Of a DNA stretch of 64,000 nt, positions 3,736 to 45,071 are shown piece after piece. The stretch is from positions 354 through 64,353 of the forward strand of contig CAZYSP010000004.1 of NCBI GenBank assembly GCA_964650285.1, read 5' to 3'. This DNA comes from an uncultured Methanosarcinales archaeon. GTDB lineage: Archaea > Nanobdellota > Nanobdellia > Woesearchaeales > GW2011-AR4. Position 1 is the stretch's first letter; the number at the start of each line of letters is the position of its first letter. Below the pieces are notes generated by a model that ran no database searches, was not told the DNA's origin, and saw only the letters and a program-made list of their open reading frames with translations. Both the position numbers and the translations under genes were made by a program.

Positions 3736-6065
<2,330 letters not shown>

Positions 6066-6148
6066 TTGTTTCAAACCTGTTTGGAACATTGAAAATTCCA
6101 ACTAAATTCAATAAAATTTGGGATTTTCATTTTATTAATTTCAAATTG

Positions 6149-6508
6149 TTATTTTCTTGACGGATCAACCAAAAACCTATTTTCAAGTGTATTGACTCCA
6201 ATTAAGACAGAATATTTCATATGAGTTCTGTCTGCTAAAGTAAATTCTGATCTCATTTTTTTCCCTGCCATTACAATTTCTGCTTCTACTATAGGCCTTA
6301 ATGCGTTTCCATGGGCAGACTTTATTATTTTTGATTTTATCACAGGCCCCAGGTTTAATTTTGACGCCAGCTTTGTATCTATAGAGCTTCTTGTTGCACC
6401 TGTATCAACTTTTGCTGTAACCTCTTTGTTGCCATTACTAGACACAAAACTAACCTTTTCTGTGAGCCCAACTATAACCTTTCCATCAACCTTAGCATGC
6501 CTTTCCAT
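6149..6508 (-). CDS. RimK-associated retropepsin-like protease
   Basis: AKVDTGA aspartic motif, FTLADRTHMKYSVLIG; directly upstream of rimK. Confidence 0.85.
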   Translation of the reverse strand: MERHAKVDGKVIVGLTEKVSFVSSNGNKEVTAKVDTGATRSSIDTKLASKLNLGPVIKSKIIKSAHGNALRPIVEAEIVMAGKKMRSEFTLADRTHMKYSVLIGVNTLENRFLVDPSRK

Positions 6509-6617
6509 AGCACAAAAAAAGAGTAATTCTTGGTTTATAAGGTTTTCTAATTTTGTGATATCATATGAATAAAAGAAAAATTTATTTTTATAGTGAATAT
6601 AACTTCCCATTAACCTA

Positions 6618-8687
6618 TTAGTTTTTTCTTTTTTCTTTTAATTTGTTGATATGAACTTCATCAGGAATTGTTGTTCTGTCATAAGCAATTCCGTTTCCGA
6701 TTGGTTTCCATCCCTCTTCCTCGGCACGAAAACGTAAATGCTCACCTATTGCTTCTATTAAAACATCTTTAGGTATTTCAGAAAATTTTCCGGAATCTAC
6801 TGCCTTTTTTTCAATATATGATGGAAATACCTTAAATCCGGTACGTTTGTCTTTCTCTAGAGCCCTATCTACAAACTTGTTTAATGAATTACCTAACCTT
6901 GATTTTTGCTGTTTTTTCGGAATAGGATGTATTTTTTCACTTGAGTCATTGGATTCAAATAATTCGACCAATTTTTTCAATTGGGATTTATAAAGTTTGT
7001 TGCCTTGGTTTAGGTCAACATATAAAGTAACTGCGTTTGTTCTTTGGCCTAAAATTTCTACCGAAGCTGCTCCACGACGCCCTTTACCAATGATGTCGTT
7101 TGGGTAGATCTGACCAAAAACATCAATTGCTGTATACAATACCTTCTCCAACTGGTCTTTAGGCACAGTTAGTTTAGCTAATCTTCCACGAAGTACAGAC
7201 CATGCTGCTAAATGTTCGGGGTCAGATATATTCTTCTTTATATCACTTTTAAGAAATCCTATATCCTTAACATCGTCAAGTAATCTGATTGCATCTTTAG
7301 TTAGCGGTTTTTTGAGAGCTGTTGTTAAAACATCTTTTAAATAATTAGGGTTATCTAAAACTCTTGATCCACAAATTTCAGAATCTGTAGAAATAATCAA
7401 TTCTAGATCCTTTTTACCGCGTGGAAAACCTATACTGAGATTTCCTCTTACATCAATTGGTATATAGAACTCATGAAATAATCCCCCTTTCCTGATTGTT
7501 GAATAATGTTTACCAATATTGACTGGACATAAATCGATTAATCCGATTTCTCTTGAAATTTTGTCAATTTCCTCTTTATCAAAAGTAAGATTTTGAAAAT
7601 GATAATATTTGGAATAATGAGTTTTTTCTTCTAACCCCCCACATTTCCGCTCGTACATTGCAAGTACTGAATGGAGTTTTTTTGTCAATTTCCTTTTACT
7701 ATTATTTAGGACAGTTAATTGACTACTATATTTTTGGTCGATTTTTTCACTTAATTTGACCTTTATTTTTAAATTTCTAATATCATTGTTTAATTTGTTT
7801 AATTCAATAGCATCGTTTCTTGCTGCTTCTGAGATTTCAGAATATTCCATTTCGAAAAGATTTTTATAAAATGAATTTTTTCTAGAGTTCCAGCTCAATC
7901 TAGAAAGTCTTCCTCTTTCCTCATCTATCACATCTTTTCTGAATAAAATTCCTTCAAATTCGTATACAGCGTAATCAAGATGTGATTTTAACTTGTTTCC
8001 TTTGTAGATGTAAACTCCTAACTTTGTTTTAATATTATCCCTTAAATTCTCTCGTTGATGGTTCAACTCATTTATTTTTTCGGCTGATTTTATATCTTCC
8101 TTTTTATTGTGAGTAAACTGCAACATGTCATATTCGTAGGAAATTCTAGAATAATTACCAATATCTTCTTTTAACTCATTGAGTAACTCGTCCTTGTTTG
8201 ACTCTGTGAGAGATTTTATAGATAAGACTTCTCCCATACTAAAATTATGGGCTTTGGCCAGGTTTTTTCTTGTTCCTGGAGGCAATTGTTCCCAATATTT
8301 TTCGGTTAAAAAGTGATATGTTTTAATTGCTTCTGGACTTAGGAAATAATTAACTCCCTTTTCTGATTCTTTAGTTCTTGAACTTAGTAAATAATTATCT
8401 CCCTTTTCAGATTCTTCAGTTCTTTCTTCTAATAGGGATGCAAAAGTATACCAAAAATCTTTATCTTGTTTGCCTACGAACGTAGAATAATCAGATTCTA
8501 AGCTATGTACAATATTTTCCAATTTGTTTTGAGGAGGAGATGCTAAATCTATACTTCCCCTATATTCTATCACTGGCGCATTATCTCTAAACTGCTTTAA
8601 AGAAGCTTCTTTCATTACTCTAAGTAGAGAATCAACTTTATGTAGACGTTCAGTTGGTTTATAGTTTTCGAATAACATAATTATCAC
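6618..8687 (-). CDS. Large hypothetical protein (ORFan)
   Basis: 689-aa open frame with BRE/TATA-like CGAAAGATTTATA upstream; no recognisable motif. Confidence 0.7.
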   Translation of the reverse strand: MIIMLFENYKPTERLHKVDSLLRVMKEASLKQFRDNAPVIEYRGSIDLASPPQNKLENIVHSLESDYSTFVGKQDKDFWYTFASLLEERTEESEKGDNYLLSSRTKESEKGVNYFLSPEAIKTYHFLTEKYWEQLPPGTRKNLAKAHNFSMGEVLSIKSLTESNKDELLNELKEDIGNYSRISYEYDMLQFTHNKKEDIKSAEKINELNHQRENLRDNIKTKLGVYIYKGNKLKSHLDYAVYEFEGILFRKDVIDEERGRLSRLSWNSRKNSFYKNLFEMEYSEISEAARNDAIELNKLNNDIRNLKIKVKLSEKIDQKYSSQLTVLNNSKRKLTKKLHSVLAMYERKCGGLEEKTHYSKYYHFQNLTFDKEEIDKISREIGLIDLCPVNIGKHYSTIRKGGLFHEFYIPIDVRGNLSIGFPRGKKDLELIISTDSEICGSRVLDNPNYLKDVLTTALKKPLTKDAIRLLDDVKDIGFLKSDIKKNISDPEHLAAWSVLRGRLAKLTVPKDQLEKVLYTAIDVFGQIYPNDIIGKGRRGAASVEILGQRTNAVTLYVDLNQGNKLYKSQLKKLVELFESNDSSEKIHPIPKKQQKSRLGNSLNKFVDRALEKDKRTGFKVFPSYIEKKAVDSGKFSEIPKDVLIEAIGEHLRFRAEEEGWKPIGNGIAYDRTTIPDEVHINKLKEKRKN
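8337..8426. repeat. 45-bp tandem duplication inside the ORFan (15-aa repeat)
   Basis: Units 8337-8381 and 8382-8426 encode RTEESEKGDNYLLSS and RTKESEKGVNYFLSP. Confidence 0.85.
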
Positions 8688-40522: not shown

Positions 40523-41163
40523 TTATAGCTTTAACAGGCAAAAACGCATCCGGCAAAAGCGAGGTTGCAGAATATCTGAAAACAAAAGGATTTGTTTATT
40601 ATTCTCTTTCTGATGTGTTGAGGGAAGAAGCTACAAAAAGAGGTTTAGAGCATTCCAGGGATAATTTGACTAAATTAGGAAATGGGTTAAGGGAAAAATT
40701 TGGAGCAAGTTATTTAGCAGCCCAAATTAATAAAAAAATAAAGCAGCAATTAAAGTCCAATAATAGAAATTCAATAATTAAAAAAAACAATGGTTTGATT
40801 AATAATAATGGATCAAAAATCAATGAAAAAAATAACAACGAAACCAATTTTGTAATTGACAGCATAAGAAGCCCTTATGAGGCAAAAGAACTGATGAAAA
40901 ACAAGGATTTTATTCTTATTGGCATCGATGTCCCAGTTGAATTGTGTTTTAAAAGGCTGCTTGAAAGAAACAGGGTTGGAGATGCAAAGACATTGGAAGC
41001 CTTCAAACAACAAGAGCAAAGAGAAAATTTAAATAATACTACAAATCAACAGCTCGATGAGACATTTAAGTTAGCAGAAAAAGTTATTGTTAATGATGGC
41101 ACTTTGGAAGAGTTGCATAAGAAAGTTGATGATTTATTATTACAACTAAAAAATAAACATTAA
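40519..41163 (+). CDS. P-loop nucleotide kinase (dephospho-CoA/cytidylate kinase-like) with Asn-rich insertion
   Basis: LTGKNASGKS, VIDSIR, VNDGTLEEL. Confidence 0.8.
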   Translation: MIIALTGKNASGKSEVAEYLKTKGFVYYSLSDVLREEATKRGLEHSRDNLTKLGNGLREKFGASYLAAQINKKIKQQLKSNNRNSIIKKNNGLINNNGSKINEKNNNETNFVIDSIRSPYEAKELMKNKDFILIGIDVPVELCFKRLLERNRVGDAKTLEAFKQQEQRENLNNTTNQQLDETFKLAEKVIVNDGTLEELHKKVDDLLLQLKNKH

Positions 41164-41212
41164 TTCATATTAAAAATAAAAAATATTATTGGAATAAAAA
41201 TAATGAATAAAA

Positions 41213-41650
41213 ATGACAAGAGCAAGCTGGGAAGAGTATTTCATGAACATTGCAAAGCAGGTTGCTAGCAGAAGCACCTGTGAAAGGAAGCATATAGGCT
41301 CAGTTATTGTAAGGGATAAAACCATACTTTCTACAGGTTATAACGGAAGCATCAGGGGAATGCCGCATTGTGACGAAGCAGGGCATATGATGGAAAATGG
41401 CCATTGTGTTGCTACAATACACGCAGAAGCAAATGCAATCCTGCAAGCAGCTAAAAATGGCGTCATGATTGGCAATTCTGAAATCTACATAACCGCAAGC
41501 CCATGCTGGACATGCTTCAAGATGCTTGCTAACGCCGGAATAAAAAAAATCTATTATGGAGAATTCTACAGGGATGAAAGGATCTTTGATGTAGCAAAGA
41601 AACTAGGCATAGAATTAACACACATAAAAGTTGATCAGAGTAAGTTATAA
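41213..41650 (+). CDS. dCMP deaminase family protein
   Basis: STC, GYNG, HAEANA, PCWTC. Confidence 0.92.
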   Translation: MTRASWEEYFMNIAKQVASRSTCERKHIGSVIVRDKTILSTGYNGSIRGMPHCDEAGHMMENGHCVATIHAEANAILQAAKNGVMIGNSEIYITASPCWTCFKMLANAGIKKIYYGEFYRDERIFDVAKKLGIELTHIKVDQSKL

Positions 41651-41662
41651 AGATTGCACAAT

Positions 41663-41760
41663 CTAACGTGCTGTCCAGCCGCCATCCACAACAAGATTAT
41701 GGCCAGTTATAAAGCTCGATTCATCCAATGCCAAAAAAACTGCAGCATTTCCAATCGGCC
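41663..41760 (-). pseudogene. C-terminal relic of a short-chain dehydrogenase
   Basis: Encodes PIGNAAVFLALDESSFITGHNLVVDGGWTAR-stop; in-frame stop upstream, no N-terminus. Confidence 0.8.
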
Positions 41761-41837
41761 TTTTTCTTTCTTTTGTTGTAGAACTACTTTATAAACCTCA
41801 CGCGCAAATGTCCGGTGGTATAGTAAGAATTAGATGA

Positions 41838-43340
41838 TCAAACACTCTCAGGCTTCCATAATCTTGCAATCCTGTCCTTTTCGCGCCATTTTCTTATGAA
41901 GTTCTTTACCCTTAACGGAAGGACAGTTTCAAGAAGTTCACTTTTTTCAGTCAGCTTGTAAAGCTCTTTTTTTAGCTTGTTGCTTAAGTCTTTATACAAG
42001 CTAGGGTCAGCATAAATCAAGCCTTCCTCAATTCTATGGTAAGCTGTAGTTCCTTCTGGAGCAAAAACTATGTAACCGCGTTTGCCCTTTAAAAGTTCCG
42101 AGTAAGAATCCATCCCCCTGTACACCTTTTCTGCATCTGCTAAATAAACACCGCCTTTCTTGCCGCTTGGGTCTAAAATTACAAGCTCATCACCCTCAAC
42201 AGCCACGCATACAGAATAATGGGCTGATTTTGCTTGCGGAAATAAAATATTCTTTTTATAGTCAACAATAATTAAGGCTCCTTCATTGAGCCATAGCCTT
42301 ATCTCATCTTTTAAGTCTGTTATGTGGCCTATGTCTATCCAGGCTCCCTTAACCTTGTTTTTGGTCATATCCTGCGTAACTTTGATCAATGTTTCCGGAT
42401 GAGTTCCCATACCCACCTTGGTGTTGCTTAATTCCCCTATTTTTGACTGGCTCTCACTGTAGCCAAAGATTTTCAGTATTATTGATACGCTGGCAGGTCC
42501 ACAAAAACTGGGCTTTTGCTCAACATAATAACTTTTTATTTTTTCCAAAGTATCAAGGTCAGTTTCTACATTCTTGAATGATATGTCTTTTTTTACAAAT
42601 TCTTTGTTGGGTATGGATGTTGAATAGCCAAAATCAGACTTTATTGTAACTGCCTGGTTTGATATGGATTTTATGCTGCCATCTATATCATCAATTTTAA
42701 CTTTCTGGCCAAGTTTAAATGATCTAGAGGTTCTTATGTAAATGCCTGCTATAAAATTTTCCATAAACACTTTTGTTCCAAAAAATATGTATAAGAAAAG
42801 CAGGGCCATGATTCCATAAAAAAACCATCCAATAGCAGAGGTTATACCACTTATATTAATACCAAAAAAATCCAGCAGGAATAAGCCGGTAAATAGGTAC
42901 AAAGAAATGCGCACAAAAGCCAGAATCCCGTTCAGGAAATGCTCTCTCTTCTGCTCAAGCATAAACTCTGTAATGCCAGTTGCAGCAAATATCCTTTTTA
43001 ATCCAAAAGTTATCAGATTTATGACTGCTATAGCCAGTATAATCAGCAGTATTACAAGCAGTATGTTTGGCAATAAGTCGTATGTATTTGAAATGAAGTT
43101 GCCTGCTACTGTTATGTCCTTTACCAAATCAACCTGTAAGTAGATTAATGCAGCTAAAATTGTGAAAATCATAACCAGGTATCTGAAAACCTTTACAATC
43201 TGTATGTGCTTTACACTTATTGTTTCTTTTTTTTTGGAGAATGAGATTACTAAGCTACTTCCTATCCTGACTACTACGTAACCTGCTATAAGTATTAAAA
43301 TAGTGATTAAAAGTTTTGTTGTTGTTACATTCAGTGCCAT
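41838..43340 (-). CDS. MscS-family membrane protein fused to a C39-like peptidase domain
   Basis: Multiple TMs, MscS beta-domain (FKLGQKVKI...VTIKSDFG..TSIPN), then QKPSFCGPAS...HY...ILDP. Confidence 0.82.
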   Translation of the reverse strand: MALNVTTTKLLITILILIAGYVVVRIGSSLVISFSKKKETISVKHIQIVKVFRYLVMIFTILAALIYLQVDLVKDITVAGNFISNTYDLLPNILLVILLIILAIAVINLITFGLKRIFAATGITEFMLEQKREHFLNGILAFVRISLYLFTGLFLLDFFGINISGITSAIGWFFYGIMALLFLYIFFGTKVFMENFIAGIYIRTSRSFKLGQKVKIDDIDGSIKSISNQAVTIKSDFGYSTSIPNKEFVKKDISFKNVETDLDTLEKIKSYYVEQKPSFCGPASVSIILKIFGYSESQSKIGELSNTKVGMGTHPETLIKVTQDMTKNKVKGAWIDIGHITDLKDEIRLWLNEGALIIVDYKKNILFPQAKSAHYSVCVAVEGDELVILDPSGKKGGVYLADAEKVYRGMDSYSELLKGKRGYIVFAPEGTTAYHRIEEGLIYADPSLYKDLSNKLKKELYKLTEKSELLETVLPLRVKNFIRKWREKDRIARLWKPESV

Positions 43341-43516
43341 TTTAGGTTTTTTAACTACTTATTCTAAATGATAACCGAGGTTAAATAAATAGTTTGTTGT
43401 TTTTTTGAAATTTTAAACAGAAGTTTGAATGAAAAATGAGATTTTTAATAAAATTGTGTAAATATTATCTCTGTAAAGATAAGTTCAAATAATTATCATT
43501 ATTGCCCTAATATTTA

Positions 43517-43864
43517 ATGACCGTAAACATTACTGTAGAGGAATTAGACATACGTAGAACATATTTATGCAAAAATCTTGATTTAGTTACATTATTTTTT
43601 TTAAAAGAAAAAAGTTCACTTAATGCCTATGATGTTATAGAAGAAGTCCTTTCTGAATTCAAGGTTTTGCTATTCCCACCTACAGTTTATCATGTTTGGG
43701 ATAATCTTACTCACACTAATTATATAAAAGTGGATGAAGCAGGAGAAAAAGGTGAAGAATATTTGAATTTATTAATATCAACTAGAGCAAGAATAGATAG
43801 ACATTTAGGATTAATCCAGAAGGATATGCCACTATACCATCCATTACCTCCAACATTTGCGTAG
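43517..43864 (+). CDS. PadR-like winged-helix protein
   Basis: LDLVTLFFLKE...AYDVI...VLLFPPTVY. Confidence 0.6.
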   Translation: MTVNITVEELDIRRTYLCKNLDLVTLFFLKEKSSLNAYDVIEEVLSEFKVLLFPPTVYHVWDNLTHTNYIKVDEAGEKGEEYLNLLISTRARIDRHLGLIQKDMPLYHPLPPTFA

Positions 43865-43954
43865 TATTTCCTAAGGATTCTTTTAGTTTCTTTATATGCA
43901 ACAGTATCTAAAAAGAAAACATTTATATATCAATCTGCCTTGTATAAAGTTGAA

Positions 43955-44122
43955 ATGATTATAGACAAAAATATTTTGATAGGGCTCGGTATTTTAGTGG
44001 GGATTTACCTATTGTATAAATTTTTGTTCCGTGCAAGCAAGTTTGATGATGAGTACCAAAAAGTCTATAATAAAGTCCTTACCTCAGAAGAGTATAAGGT
44101 TAAAGGACAGTATGATAAATAA
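43955..44122 (+). CDS. Small single-TM protein
   Basis: ILIGLGILVGIYLLYKFLF followed by a charged tail. Confidence 0.6.
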   Translation: MIIDKNILIGLGILVGIYLLYKFLFRASKFDDEYQKVYNKVLTSEEYKVKGQYDK

Positions 44123-44194
44123 GTTCTTCTTTTTCTGGGATTGCATTAAAAATAAATAAATTTATTAAAGATAAATGAGAAATATCATAATAAA

Positions 44195-44320
44195 ATGGTA
44201 AAATGCCCTTACTGCGGAAAGGAATTGACAGAAAATGAAACATTCTGCTGGCACTGCGAGAATGATCTTTCCAAGCTGAAAGATAAGATGGAAAAGCCGG
44301 AATCAGAAGAAGATAGTTAG
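44195..44320 (+). CDS. 41-aa zinc-ribbon protein (absent from ORF track)
   Basis: MVKCPYCGKELTENETFCWHCENDL...; abuts tpiA. Confidence 0.8.
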   Translation: MVKCPYCGKELTENETFCWHCENDLSKLKDKMEKPESEEDS

Positions 44321-44321
44321 A

Positions 44322-45071
44322 ATGGCAATGAAACCTCTAATAGCAGCGAACTGGAAGATGAATAAGGATATTAAGGAAGCTGTTTCTTTTATTAACAAAT
44401 TTAAAAATTTAATTAAAAATATTAAAAATACTGAAATAGTAATTTGTGCACCTTTTACATCATTATCTGAAATAAAAAAATTAATCAAAACTACAAATAT
44501 TAAACTTGGCGCGCAAAACATGCATTTTGAGGAAAAAGGCGCATTTACAGGCGAGATTTCCGGATTAATGCTAAAAGATATTGTTGAATATGTTATTCTA
44601 GGTCATTCTGAGAGAAGGCAGATTTTTCATGAGACTGATGATTTAATAAACAAAAAAATAGAGTCAGCATTAAAAAATAAATTAAAACCTATATTATGCA
44701 TTGGAGAAACATTACAGCAGAGAAACAATAACAAAACAATGAAAATAATAAAAAATCAATTGAAAGGATGTTTAAAAAATGTTTCAAATGATGAAATGAA
44801 AAATATTGTTGTTGCTTACGAGCCGGTATGGGCAATAGGGACAGGGAAAAATGCAACTCCAGAGCAGGCAGAAGAAGTTCATAAGTTCATAAGGGAATTA
44901 TTGTCAAAAATGTATAATGAAACTATTTCTAAAAATACAAGGATAATTTACGGCGGCAGCATGAAGCCAAATAACGCCCGCGAGCTGTTATCAATGCCAA
45001 ACATCAATGGCGGCTTAGTTGGTGGTGCTTCTTTAGATGCCAAGAGTTTTGGTGAGATTTGCAATACCTAA
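44322..45071 (+). CDS. tpiA: Triosephosphate isomerase (bacterial-length)
   Basis: [33 protein letters not shown]. Confidence 0.97.

Follow-up and report, generated by a model that had tools for sequence, protein, structure and literature searches.

What could a cysteine-peptidase fold be doing on the cytoplasmic face of an ion channel? The question is raised by a gene in the 64,000-nucleotide stretch of contig CAZYSP010000004.1 (GenBank assembly GCA_964650285.1; G+C ~32%) analysed here, hereafter called the window, which encodes a protein with an MscS-type channel core in its N-terminal half and a papain-fold domain, resembling phytochelatin synthase (PCS) and C39 peptidases, in its C-terminal half. 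The original prediction for this locus, made from the letters alone, placed an MscS-type channel fused to a C39-like cysteine peptidase at 41838-43340 and read it as either a peptide processing and export module or a protease-regulated channel. Open reading frame (ORF) calling and Pfam return the gene at exactly these positions on the minus strand, as a clean reading frame of 500 codons starting with ATG. The fusion is genuine and, in one major clade of DPANN archaea, forms an operon with RimK-family ligases. We propose, with a probability of roughly 40%, that it is an MscS-family channel whose cytoplasmic vestibule would consist of cysteine amidase domains acting on glutamyl-type peptides, coupled to the release of solute.

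The channel core and the reality of the fusion

Pfam clearly recognises residues 194-253 as MS_channel_2nd (PF00924; E 7.5e-10, 39.2 bits against a cutoff of 20.2), and NCBIfam gives weak MscS/MscK matches only, over the same MscS core. The membrane half has five hydropathy peaks, and the mean number of lysines plus arginines per loop among 99 homologues runs 0.9/4.8/0.9/3.3/0.2, with 10.4 past the fifth transmembrane (TM) helix; because this pattern is positive-inside, an N-out/C-in topology like that of five-TM MscS relatives such as YnaI is strongly supported as a prediction. An AlphaFold (AF2) monomer model built from the 99-sequence alignment (mean predicted local distance difference test score, pLDDT, 80) places helices at 5-36, 43-74, 76-121, 133-158 and 164-188, then a break at the near-invariant G188, a helix at 190-205 and a small beta-domain at 213-255, that is, with a kink in the pore helix ahead of the TM3b-like helix. 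Foldseek matches of the membrane half comprise MscS, YnaI, MscK, YbiO and MSL1 (E ~1e-6 for MscS and YnaI), and, aligned by eye, the TM3b motif E-N-F-I-A-G-I-Y...R-S-F corresponds to S-N-L-A-A-G-V-L...R-P-F of MscS, N195 and G199 being near-invariant in the homologue alignment.

What has been replaced is the usual cage, as the original prediction had it: neither Pfam nor the AF2 model gives a match in the fusion protein to the MscS alpha-beta (third) domain or the C-terminal barrel, and the papain-fold domain lies ~10 residues past the beta-domain. This absence does not exclude membership of the MscS superfamily, because some accepted relatives lack the cage too; T. cruzi MscS (137-residue chains), one of the Foldseek matches, is likewise without an alpha-beta domain. 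That the fusion protein belongs to the MscS channel superfamily, as a member specific to DPANN, is strongly supported; as a conducting channel it is putative. The layout of the gene and the features discussed below are collected in Table 1.

Table 1. Positions of the fusion gene, its predicted parts and other features of the window (numbered from the first letter of the window)
Feature	Position	Strand	Basis or remark
Fusion gene: 500-aa MscS-type channel with papain-fold (PCS/C39-like) domain	41838..43340	-	ORF, Pfam, homologues
Residues 1-192: five TM helices, TM5 (~168-192) the counterpart of MscS pore helix TM3a	42765..43340	-	Hydropathy, charge pattern, AF2, Foldseek
Residues 193-255: MscS TM3b-like helix (E-N-F-I-A-G-I-Y) and beta-domain	42576..42764	-	PF00924, conservation, AF2 strands 213-255
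Residues 256-428: predicted cytoplasmic papain-fold catalytic domain, PCS-like/C39-like	42057..42575	-	Profile against PDB, Foldseek, conservation
Active-site codon Q275	42516-42518	-	Verified
Active-site codon C280	42501-42503	-	Verified
Invariant-residue codon K363	42252-42254	-	Verified
Active-site codon H374	42219-42221	-	Verified
Active-site codon D390	42171-42173	-	Verified
Invariant-residue codon R421	42078-42080	-	Verified
Residues 429-500: helical C-terminal tail, conserved	41841..42056	-	Conservation; AF2 helices 432-438, 446-468, 476-488
Promoter-like block abutting the ATG, with TTTATTTAA	43341..43405	-	Conservation among lineage-0 relatives
~500-bp segment with 115-aa ORF 43517-43864 (+)	43406-43910		Absent from close relatives
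Single-TM protein, 60 aa	43940-44122	+	Conserved beside channel gene, close relatives only
Zinc ribbon, 41 aa, acidic C-terminus ...KPESEEDS	44195-44320	+	Weak LysW-type match, E 0.028; close relatives only
RimB-like retropepsin (6149-6610) and RimK-family ligase (4980-6101), unlinked candidate partners	4980..6610	-	PF05618, TIGR00768

An assembly chimera is excluded: full-length proteins that are identical or nearly so recur on many independent contigs, and a scan of one genome per GTDB species found the architecture in at least 98 species genomes, all informative records of which are DPANN. A word-indexed search recovered 125 clusters with identities as low as 33%, of which almost all are full-length proteins of 480-535 aa; the named sources are Woesearchaeota, Aenigmarchaeota, Nanohaloarchaeota and Nanoarchaeota, and the complete genome of Ca. 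Nanohalovita haloferacivicina is among the carriers. Exhaustive searching with a profile of the C-terminal domain gave ~60 representatives (at 50% identity) with the domain at ~250-500 of ~500 aa, past which scores drop sharply from >90 bits to <70. Each locus holds one copy of the fusion, and its tree follows the DPANN lineages. In databases the members are annotated either as 'mechanosensitive ion channel family protein' or as 'C39 family peptidase', and our literature searches found no publication describing an MscS-papain fusion. Many of the species metagenome-assembled genomes that carry the gene are titled 'uncultured Methanosarcinales archaeon' (e.g. L010, L011, L013, L028); their genes are 82-86% identical to Woesearchaeota versions, and the Methanosarcinales titles are probably placeholder or incorrect taxonomy.

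Family and active site of the cytoplasmic domain

The domain search left three marginal, overlapping papain-cluster matches on residues ~272-423: Peptidase_C39 (22.7 bits against a cutoff of 22, E 9e-5), Peptidase_C39_2 (22.9 bits, below its cutoff of 24) and Phytochelatin, PF05023 (19.1 bits, below its cutoff of 24.9), the last of which is also a precomputed match of some homologues. Run as a single sequence against PDB sequences, the C-terminal half found nothing useful. Single-sequence searches thus leave the choice of family undecided, and only a family profile reached Alr0975. That profile, made from 24 diverse sequences of the domain, aligned with Alr0975/NsPCS at E 5e-8 over profile positions 14-172 (159 positions), against E 0.5 only, around the Cys motif, for the C39 domain of ComA. 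In the hidden Markov model alignment C280 pairs with Cys70, H374 with His183, D390 with Asp201, Q275 with Gln64 and K363 with Arg173 (Alr0975 numbering, its offset checked by hand), and the R421-G-Y motif pairs with R-G-F of Alr0975. Arg232 and Asp225 of NsPCS take part in binding the gamma-Glu moiety, and we take the alignment of Arg232 with R421 as a lead, not as a test.

Structural comparison gives the same order. With both the full-length model and a domain-only model (pLDDT 78), Foldseek lists Alr0975 entries first (E 6e-10, ~190 columns, root-mean-square deviation 2.7-3.3 A), the pseudomurein endoisopeptidase PeiR second, and then the C39 domains of ComA, PCAT1 and LahT (E ~1e-6, ~160 columns, template-modelling scores of 0.66-0.79 normalised to the target). 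An extracellular papain domain, prompted by the fold match to PeiR, was ruled out by the positive-inside topology. Profile and models together strongly support a predicted domain closest to the gamma-glutamyl-peptide hydrolase Alr0975, and hence PCS-like, next to C39 peptidases. Of the C39 identity first proposed, the papain-clan Cys/His/Asp domain therefore stands and C39 as the specific family does not, given the profile values and the Foldseek ranking; since C39 and PCS belong to one cluster, the 'C39-like' label was a near miss rather than an error. A published classification gathers C39, C39_2, DUF3335, BtrH_N, C70 and PCS (C83) into that one papain cluster (PMC10318531), and because the order Gln, Cys, His, Asp is common to the whole cluster it is not specific to C39.

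Nor is the domain, judged by its residues, a true phytochelatin synthase. Four residues around the acceptor cavity of PCS, Gln64, Arg173, Lys206 and Tyr207 in NsPCS numbering, are strictly conserved (PMC3855540). In the fusion family Arg173 aligns with the invariant K363, Lys206 with the variable K395 (K/T/S/N) and Tyr207 with the invariant G396, and it is because the acceptor-site residues Lys206 and Tyr207 are not kept that we set true PCS aside. The nearest non-fused relatives, which are distant profile matches, are small standalone C39/C39_2 proteins and one bona fide PCS (P0203).

The motifs reported earlier are all present, as Q275-x4-C280-G-P-A-S, H374-Y and D390-P, and in the AF2 model they adopt a papain-like geometry, with C280 at a helix N-terminus and H374 and D390 on adjacent strands. 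Q275, C280, K363, H374, D390 and R421 are invariant in the 99 homologues (33-100% identity; alignment A2); such strict invariance argues for selection on catalysis in most lineages, and the papain domain of the window protein is apparently active, going by its residues. The more distant set from the exhaustive search differs: ~14 of ~50 full-length representatives lack both Cys and His, usually with K363 and R421 gone too, and keep the papain-type domain together with the tail residues R436, Y449 and W495. This co-loss marks Cys, His, K363 and R421 as one functional unit of catalysis and substrate binding, from which the tail is functionally separate, and the persistence of the dead variants shows that the scaffold is useful without catalysis. 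Within the ~70-residue tail R436, Y449, P475 and W495 are invariant, its helices are modelled at lower pLDDT (57-69), and it may serve structure or oligomerisation.

Gene context and competing explanations

ORFs were called in 86 loci from 24 lineages (<55% identity between target proteins) and their neighbours clustered; linkage was read from the gene-order table, since the automated operon flag under-calls because of over-extended ORF starts. ATP-grasp is the sole neighbour family common to more than four lineages. Throughout a halophilic deep clade (lineages 11, 14, 15 and 16) a diverged ATP-grasp paralogue and the fusion gene overlap by 4-29 nt, the next gene is a RimK family alpha-L-glutamate ligase (TIGR00768, 154.5 bits against a cutoff of 143.4), and there follows either a GCS2/YbdK-type carboxylate-amine ligase or a P-loop protein, often with another ATP-grasp gene. 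An operon link with RimK-family ligases thus exists in one major clade. In L052/L063 the downstream ligase pair persists beside different upstream genes, which points to selection acting on the operon beyond inherited synteny; the operon-linked genes form one deep clade in the tree, which implies one or two evolutionary events, long retained. The carboxylate-amine ligase and the P-loop protein (346 aa, with a weak MobB-like match) seem to alternate as the fourth gene of the operon, families f10 (L001 9237-10268 and equivalents) and f9 (L004 9295-10335) never occurring together.

The fusion gene of the window appears to be monocistronic, its adjoining genes being divergent or convergent, and the neighbours are archaeal housekeeping genes (NrdR-like, nucleotide kinase, dCMP deaminase, triosephosphate isomerase, DnaJ/DnaK, HerA-like ATPase). 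The window nevertheless contains, 36 kb away, what is by sequence a rimB-rimK pair of bacterial type, here in the DNA of a DPANN archaeon: a RimB-family retropepsin-like gene (PF05618 'Zn_protease', E 3e-16) directly 5' of a ligase (TIGR00768, 181.5 bits against 143.4) with a C-terminal extension of ~80 residues. In L035/L039 (lineage 5, convergent) the fusion gene has the orthologous pair as its tail-to-tail neighbour, and a functional tie between the pair and the channel gene of the window may be supposed. In the halophilic loci no RimB-like protease occurs within 8 kb, and the fusion stands immediately 5' of the ligase genes, the slot held by the RimB-like gene in the window's pair. Two dead-enzyme variants (P0165, P0143) sit in the same ligase operon. 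Their clusters (L088 8001-14023; L089 974-9577) contain three or four RimK/ATP-grasp genes along with FGase (PF05013), MATCAP (PF08014) and AstE/AspA-type (PF24827) hydrolases, which may stand in for the cysteine enzyme that has been lost.

Overall the fusion looks tied to glutamate-peptide metabolism and not to bacteriocin export. On the reading we prefer, the protein would be an MscS-like heptamer whose seven enzyme domains form a cytoplasmic vestibule beneath the pore. There a cysteine amidase or peptidase, distinct from a double-glycine leader peptidase, would act on small glutamyl-type peptides or glutamylated C-termini such as RimK-family ATP-grasp ligases make, and hydrolysis or binding of the peptide would be coupled to solute release through the channel, with glutamate as the obvious candidate and a role in osmotic or solute homeostasis. 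The gene would serve this role translationally coupled to ligase genes in the halophilic DPANN and alone in the lineage of the window. Hypo-osmotic tolerance is a phenotype classically tied to MscS. Precedents make such a reading plausible: RimB trims the polyglutamate that RimK makes, and hypo-osmotic tolerance in Pseudomonas requires rloABC (PMC11957051), an operon that encodes an ATP-grasp ligase, a papain-superfamily domain carried on a seven-TM protein, and a peptidase that cleaves polyglutamate. The protease-regulated channel offered by the original prediction as its second option lies close to this reading and is possible.

Several observations weigh against it. The pore helix is rich in W, F and Y and does not show the Gly/Ala packing seen in TM3a of E. 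coli MscS, and it is the beta-domain/TM3b region only that Pfam and NCBIfam recognise, so that conduction and mechanosensitivity are putative. Loss of the catalytic residues in ~14 of ~50 representatives means that catalysis is dispensable for at least part of the family's role. The ligase link is absent in 19 of the 24 lineages, including that of the window, and where it occurs amounts to one deep clade plus one convergent case, hence one or two events. Moreover, the window organism has a RimB-like protease beside its RimK gene, so the fusion is not needed there as RimK's peptidase, and we infer a glutamyl-peptide type of substrate from fold similarity and gene context.

A rather unlikely but serious alternative is that the papain domain is mainly a structural or regulatory cage, acting as a ligand sensor or a docking site for ATP-grasp proteins, on an MscS core that is an ordinary osmotic valve, catalysis being secondary or vestigial. 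The dead variants fit this well, as they keep the domain, the tail residues and the operon, as does a tail conserved independently of the active site; the bCNG, MscS-like channels with a ligand-binding C-terminal domain, offer a parallel (PMC13591265). What it does not explain is the strict invariance of Q, C, H and D together with K363 and R421 in the window protein and the 99 homologues.

Two further explanations are improbable in our estimate. One is a true thiol-peptide enzyme on a channel, either PCS or a glutathione/gamma-Glu-Cys hydrolase, working in metal or redox homeostasis. Its attraction is that the best profile and fold match, Alr0975, deglycylates glutathione (PMC3855540), that some homologues carry the PF05023 match, and that a GCS2/YbdK-type ligase (glutamate-cysteine-ligase family 2) occurs in the operon in part of the halophilic clade. 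Against this stand the sub-cutoff PF05023 score in the window protein, the loss of Lys206 and Tyr207 to a variable position and an invariant Gly, a GCS2 gene that is far below curated cutoffs and present at some loci only, and the fact that the dominant partners are RimK-type alpha-glutamate ligases. The other, which we hold to be about equally doubtful, is that the heptamer is a novel type of machine, a self-compartmentalised ring of seven cysteine peptidase domains under the MscS pore. As an osmostat controlled by membrane tension it would interconvert free glutamate, which would be vented, and oligo-glutamate, the osmotically silent product of the RimK ligases in the operon; as an ATP-independent processing and export device, specific to DPANN symbionts, it would pass cleavage products directly out via the pore, into the surroundings or into the host cell.

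A non-ABC export module, in which the domain would cut double-glycine leaders from ribosomal peptides in C39 fashion and the mature peptides would leave via the MscS pore, is very unlikely, even though Peptidase_C39 just reaches its cutoff, the folds of ComA, PCAT1 and LahT match, and the enzyme domain is placed directly beneath a pore, an arrangement shared with PCAT transporters. The 86 loci hold 3,398 small ORFs at up to 2.5 kb from the gene; among these there was no small-ORF family accompanying the gene and conserved across lineages, apparent families being antisense shadows of ATP-grasp genes, and no double-glycine leader of the strict LSxxELxxIxGG type; a loose pattern hit 79 of the 3,398 and was uninformative. 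No ABC module was found in the fusion protein by Pfam and no conserved transporter neighbour in the 86 loci. The small ORFs noted earlier beside the gene do exist but are not leader-peptide-like: the small neighbours in the window are a TM protein and a zinc ribbon, both confined to close relatives. The C39 profile value is weak next to the PCS-like one, peptide translocation would lack an energy source, and dead-enzyme variants persist in the same operon. Leader-peptide processing and export, the first option of the original prediction, is therefore not borne out. An anti-virus or conflict effector, in which a protease would activate a membrane pore or be activated by it, is scarcely credible: papain-like toxin domains (CdiA-CT, a toxin/immunity pair) appear among the weaker Foldseek matches, but PADLOC gave no defence-system match, the gene sits among housekeeping genes and is inherited vertically, and no immunity-like or variable neighbours were found in the 86 loci.

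Flanking DNA, known systems and significance

A 60-nt block abutting the start codon of the fusion gene is nearly invariant among lineage-0 relatives, whose proteins are 82-89% identical, while the remaining intergenic DNA varies; the block contains a TATA-like AAAAACAACAAACTATTTATTTAAC and resembles an archaeal promoter or 5' leader that has been conserved. Beyond it, a segment of ~500 bp that close relatives lack, with no convincing terminal repeats, holds the 115-aa ORF that was taken earlier for a divergent PadR-like gene. We reject a PadR-like regulator here, as the ORF has no Pfam or NCBIfam match and no homologue in 88 loci and lies inside the segment that close relatives lack; it may not be a gene. 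Rfam reported no RNA family in 41000-45000. The acidic-tailed zinc ribbon further upstream may be akin to LysW, the kind of carrier protein on which RimK-family ligases act. In other loci G+C-rich palindromes, e.g. GGGATGCCTGCGGCATCCC, stand in the A+T-rich region 5' of the fusion gene (L010 ~1990-2180, L015 ~7800-7950); they occupy the site where the window has its own insertion and may be small repeat elements.

How does the fusion compare with known systems? With MscS channels it shares the TM3b and beta-domain signature, the N-out/C-in orientation and the five-TM layout of YnaI; it departs from them in that the alpha-beta cage and C-terminal barrel are replaced by a papain-fold predicted enzyme with a helical tail, in its aromatic-rich pore helix, and in a distribution apparently restricted to DPANN. 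The usual picture of MscS-like channels is that of osmotic safety valves that act passively. Like bCNG, the fusion has an extra functional domain after the conserved MscS core; a 2026 review of MscS-like channels gives the cNMP-binding bCNG, whose role is still unclear, as the only C-terminal fusion class and mentions no enzyme-fused MscS (PMC13591265).

On the enzyme side, the likeness to Alr0975/NsPCS (MEROPS C83, PF05023) lies in the aligned Cys70/His183/Asp201, Gln64, Arg173 (here Lys) and C-terminal R-G-[FY]. The differences are the score below the Pfam cutoff, an invariant Gly-Gly-Val-Tyr motif and a variable residue in place of Lys206/Tyr207, a Q-to-C spacing one residue shorter, the channel fusion itself and the extra 70-residue tail. 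C39 enzymes (ComA, PCAT1, LahT and standalone C39_2) belong to the same papain sub-cluster (PMC10318531), with the order Q...CG.A...H...D and, like the fusion, an enzyme on a membrane conduit. They are set apart by the ABC transporter and double-glycine substrates that the fusion lacks, by the profile value, and by a reduced core, the fusion domain having extra structural elements in common with PCS.

RimK/RimB systems resemble the halophilic DPANN loci, in which the fusion lies in a RimK-ligase operon in the upstream slot of a RimB-like protease, although RimB is a retropepsin and the fusion peptidase a cysteine papain-fold. In RloB, too, a papain-superfamily domain is attached to TM helices, and rloABC has an effect on tolerance of hypo-osmotic conditions (PMC11957051); yet RloB is a seven-TM protein whose domain is periplasmic and inactive, whereas the fusion has an MscS core and a papain domain predicted to be cytoplasmic and active. 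From all of these (RimK/RimB/RloABC) most fusion lineages differ by the absence of the ligase link.

What is new here is apparently an MscS-superfamily channel that carries an enzyme domain, active as far as its residues indicate. If true, an active enzyme vestibule would make this the first MscS-type scaffold with built-in catalysis, and, heptameric MscS relatives being routine targets for electron cryomicroscopy, the case would be tractable. Active and dead variants provide a natural experiment that separates structural from catalytic roles. The operon link suggests that glutamyl-peptide chemistry is tied to archaeal osmotic homeostasis, as the rlo and rim systems hint for bacteria. Retained in at least 98 DPANN species of several phyla, with tiny, host-dependent genomes, the fusion is probably important for solute balance or exchange in these organisms.

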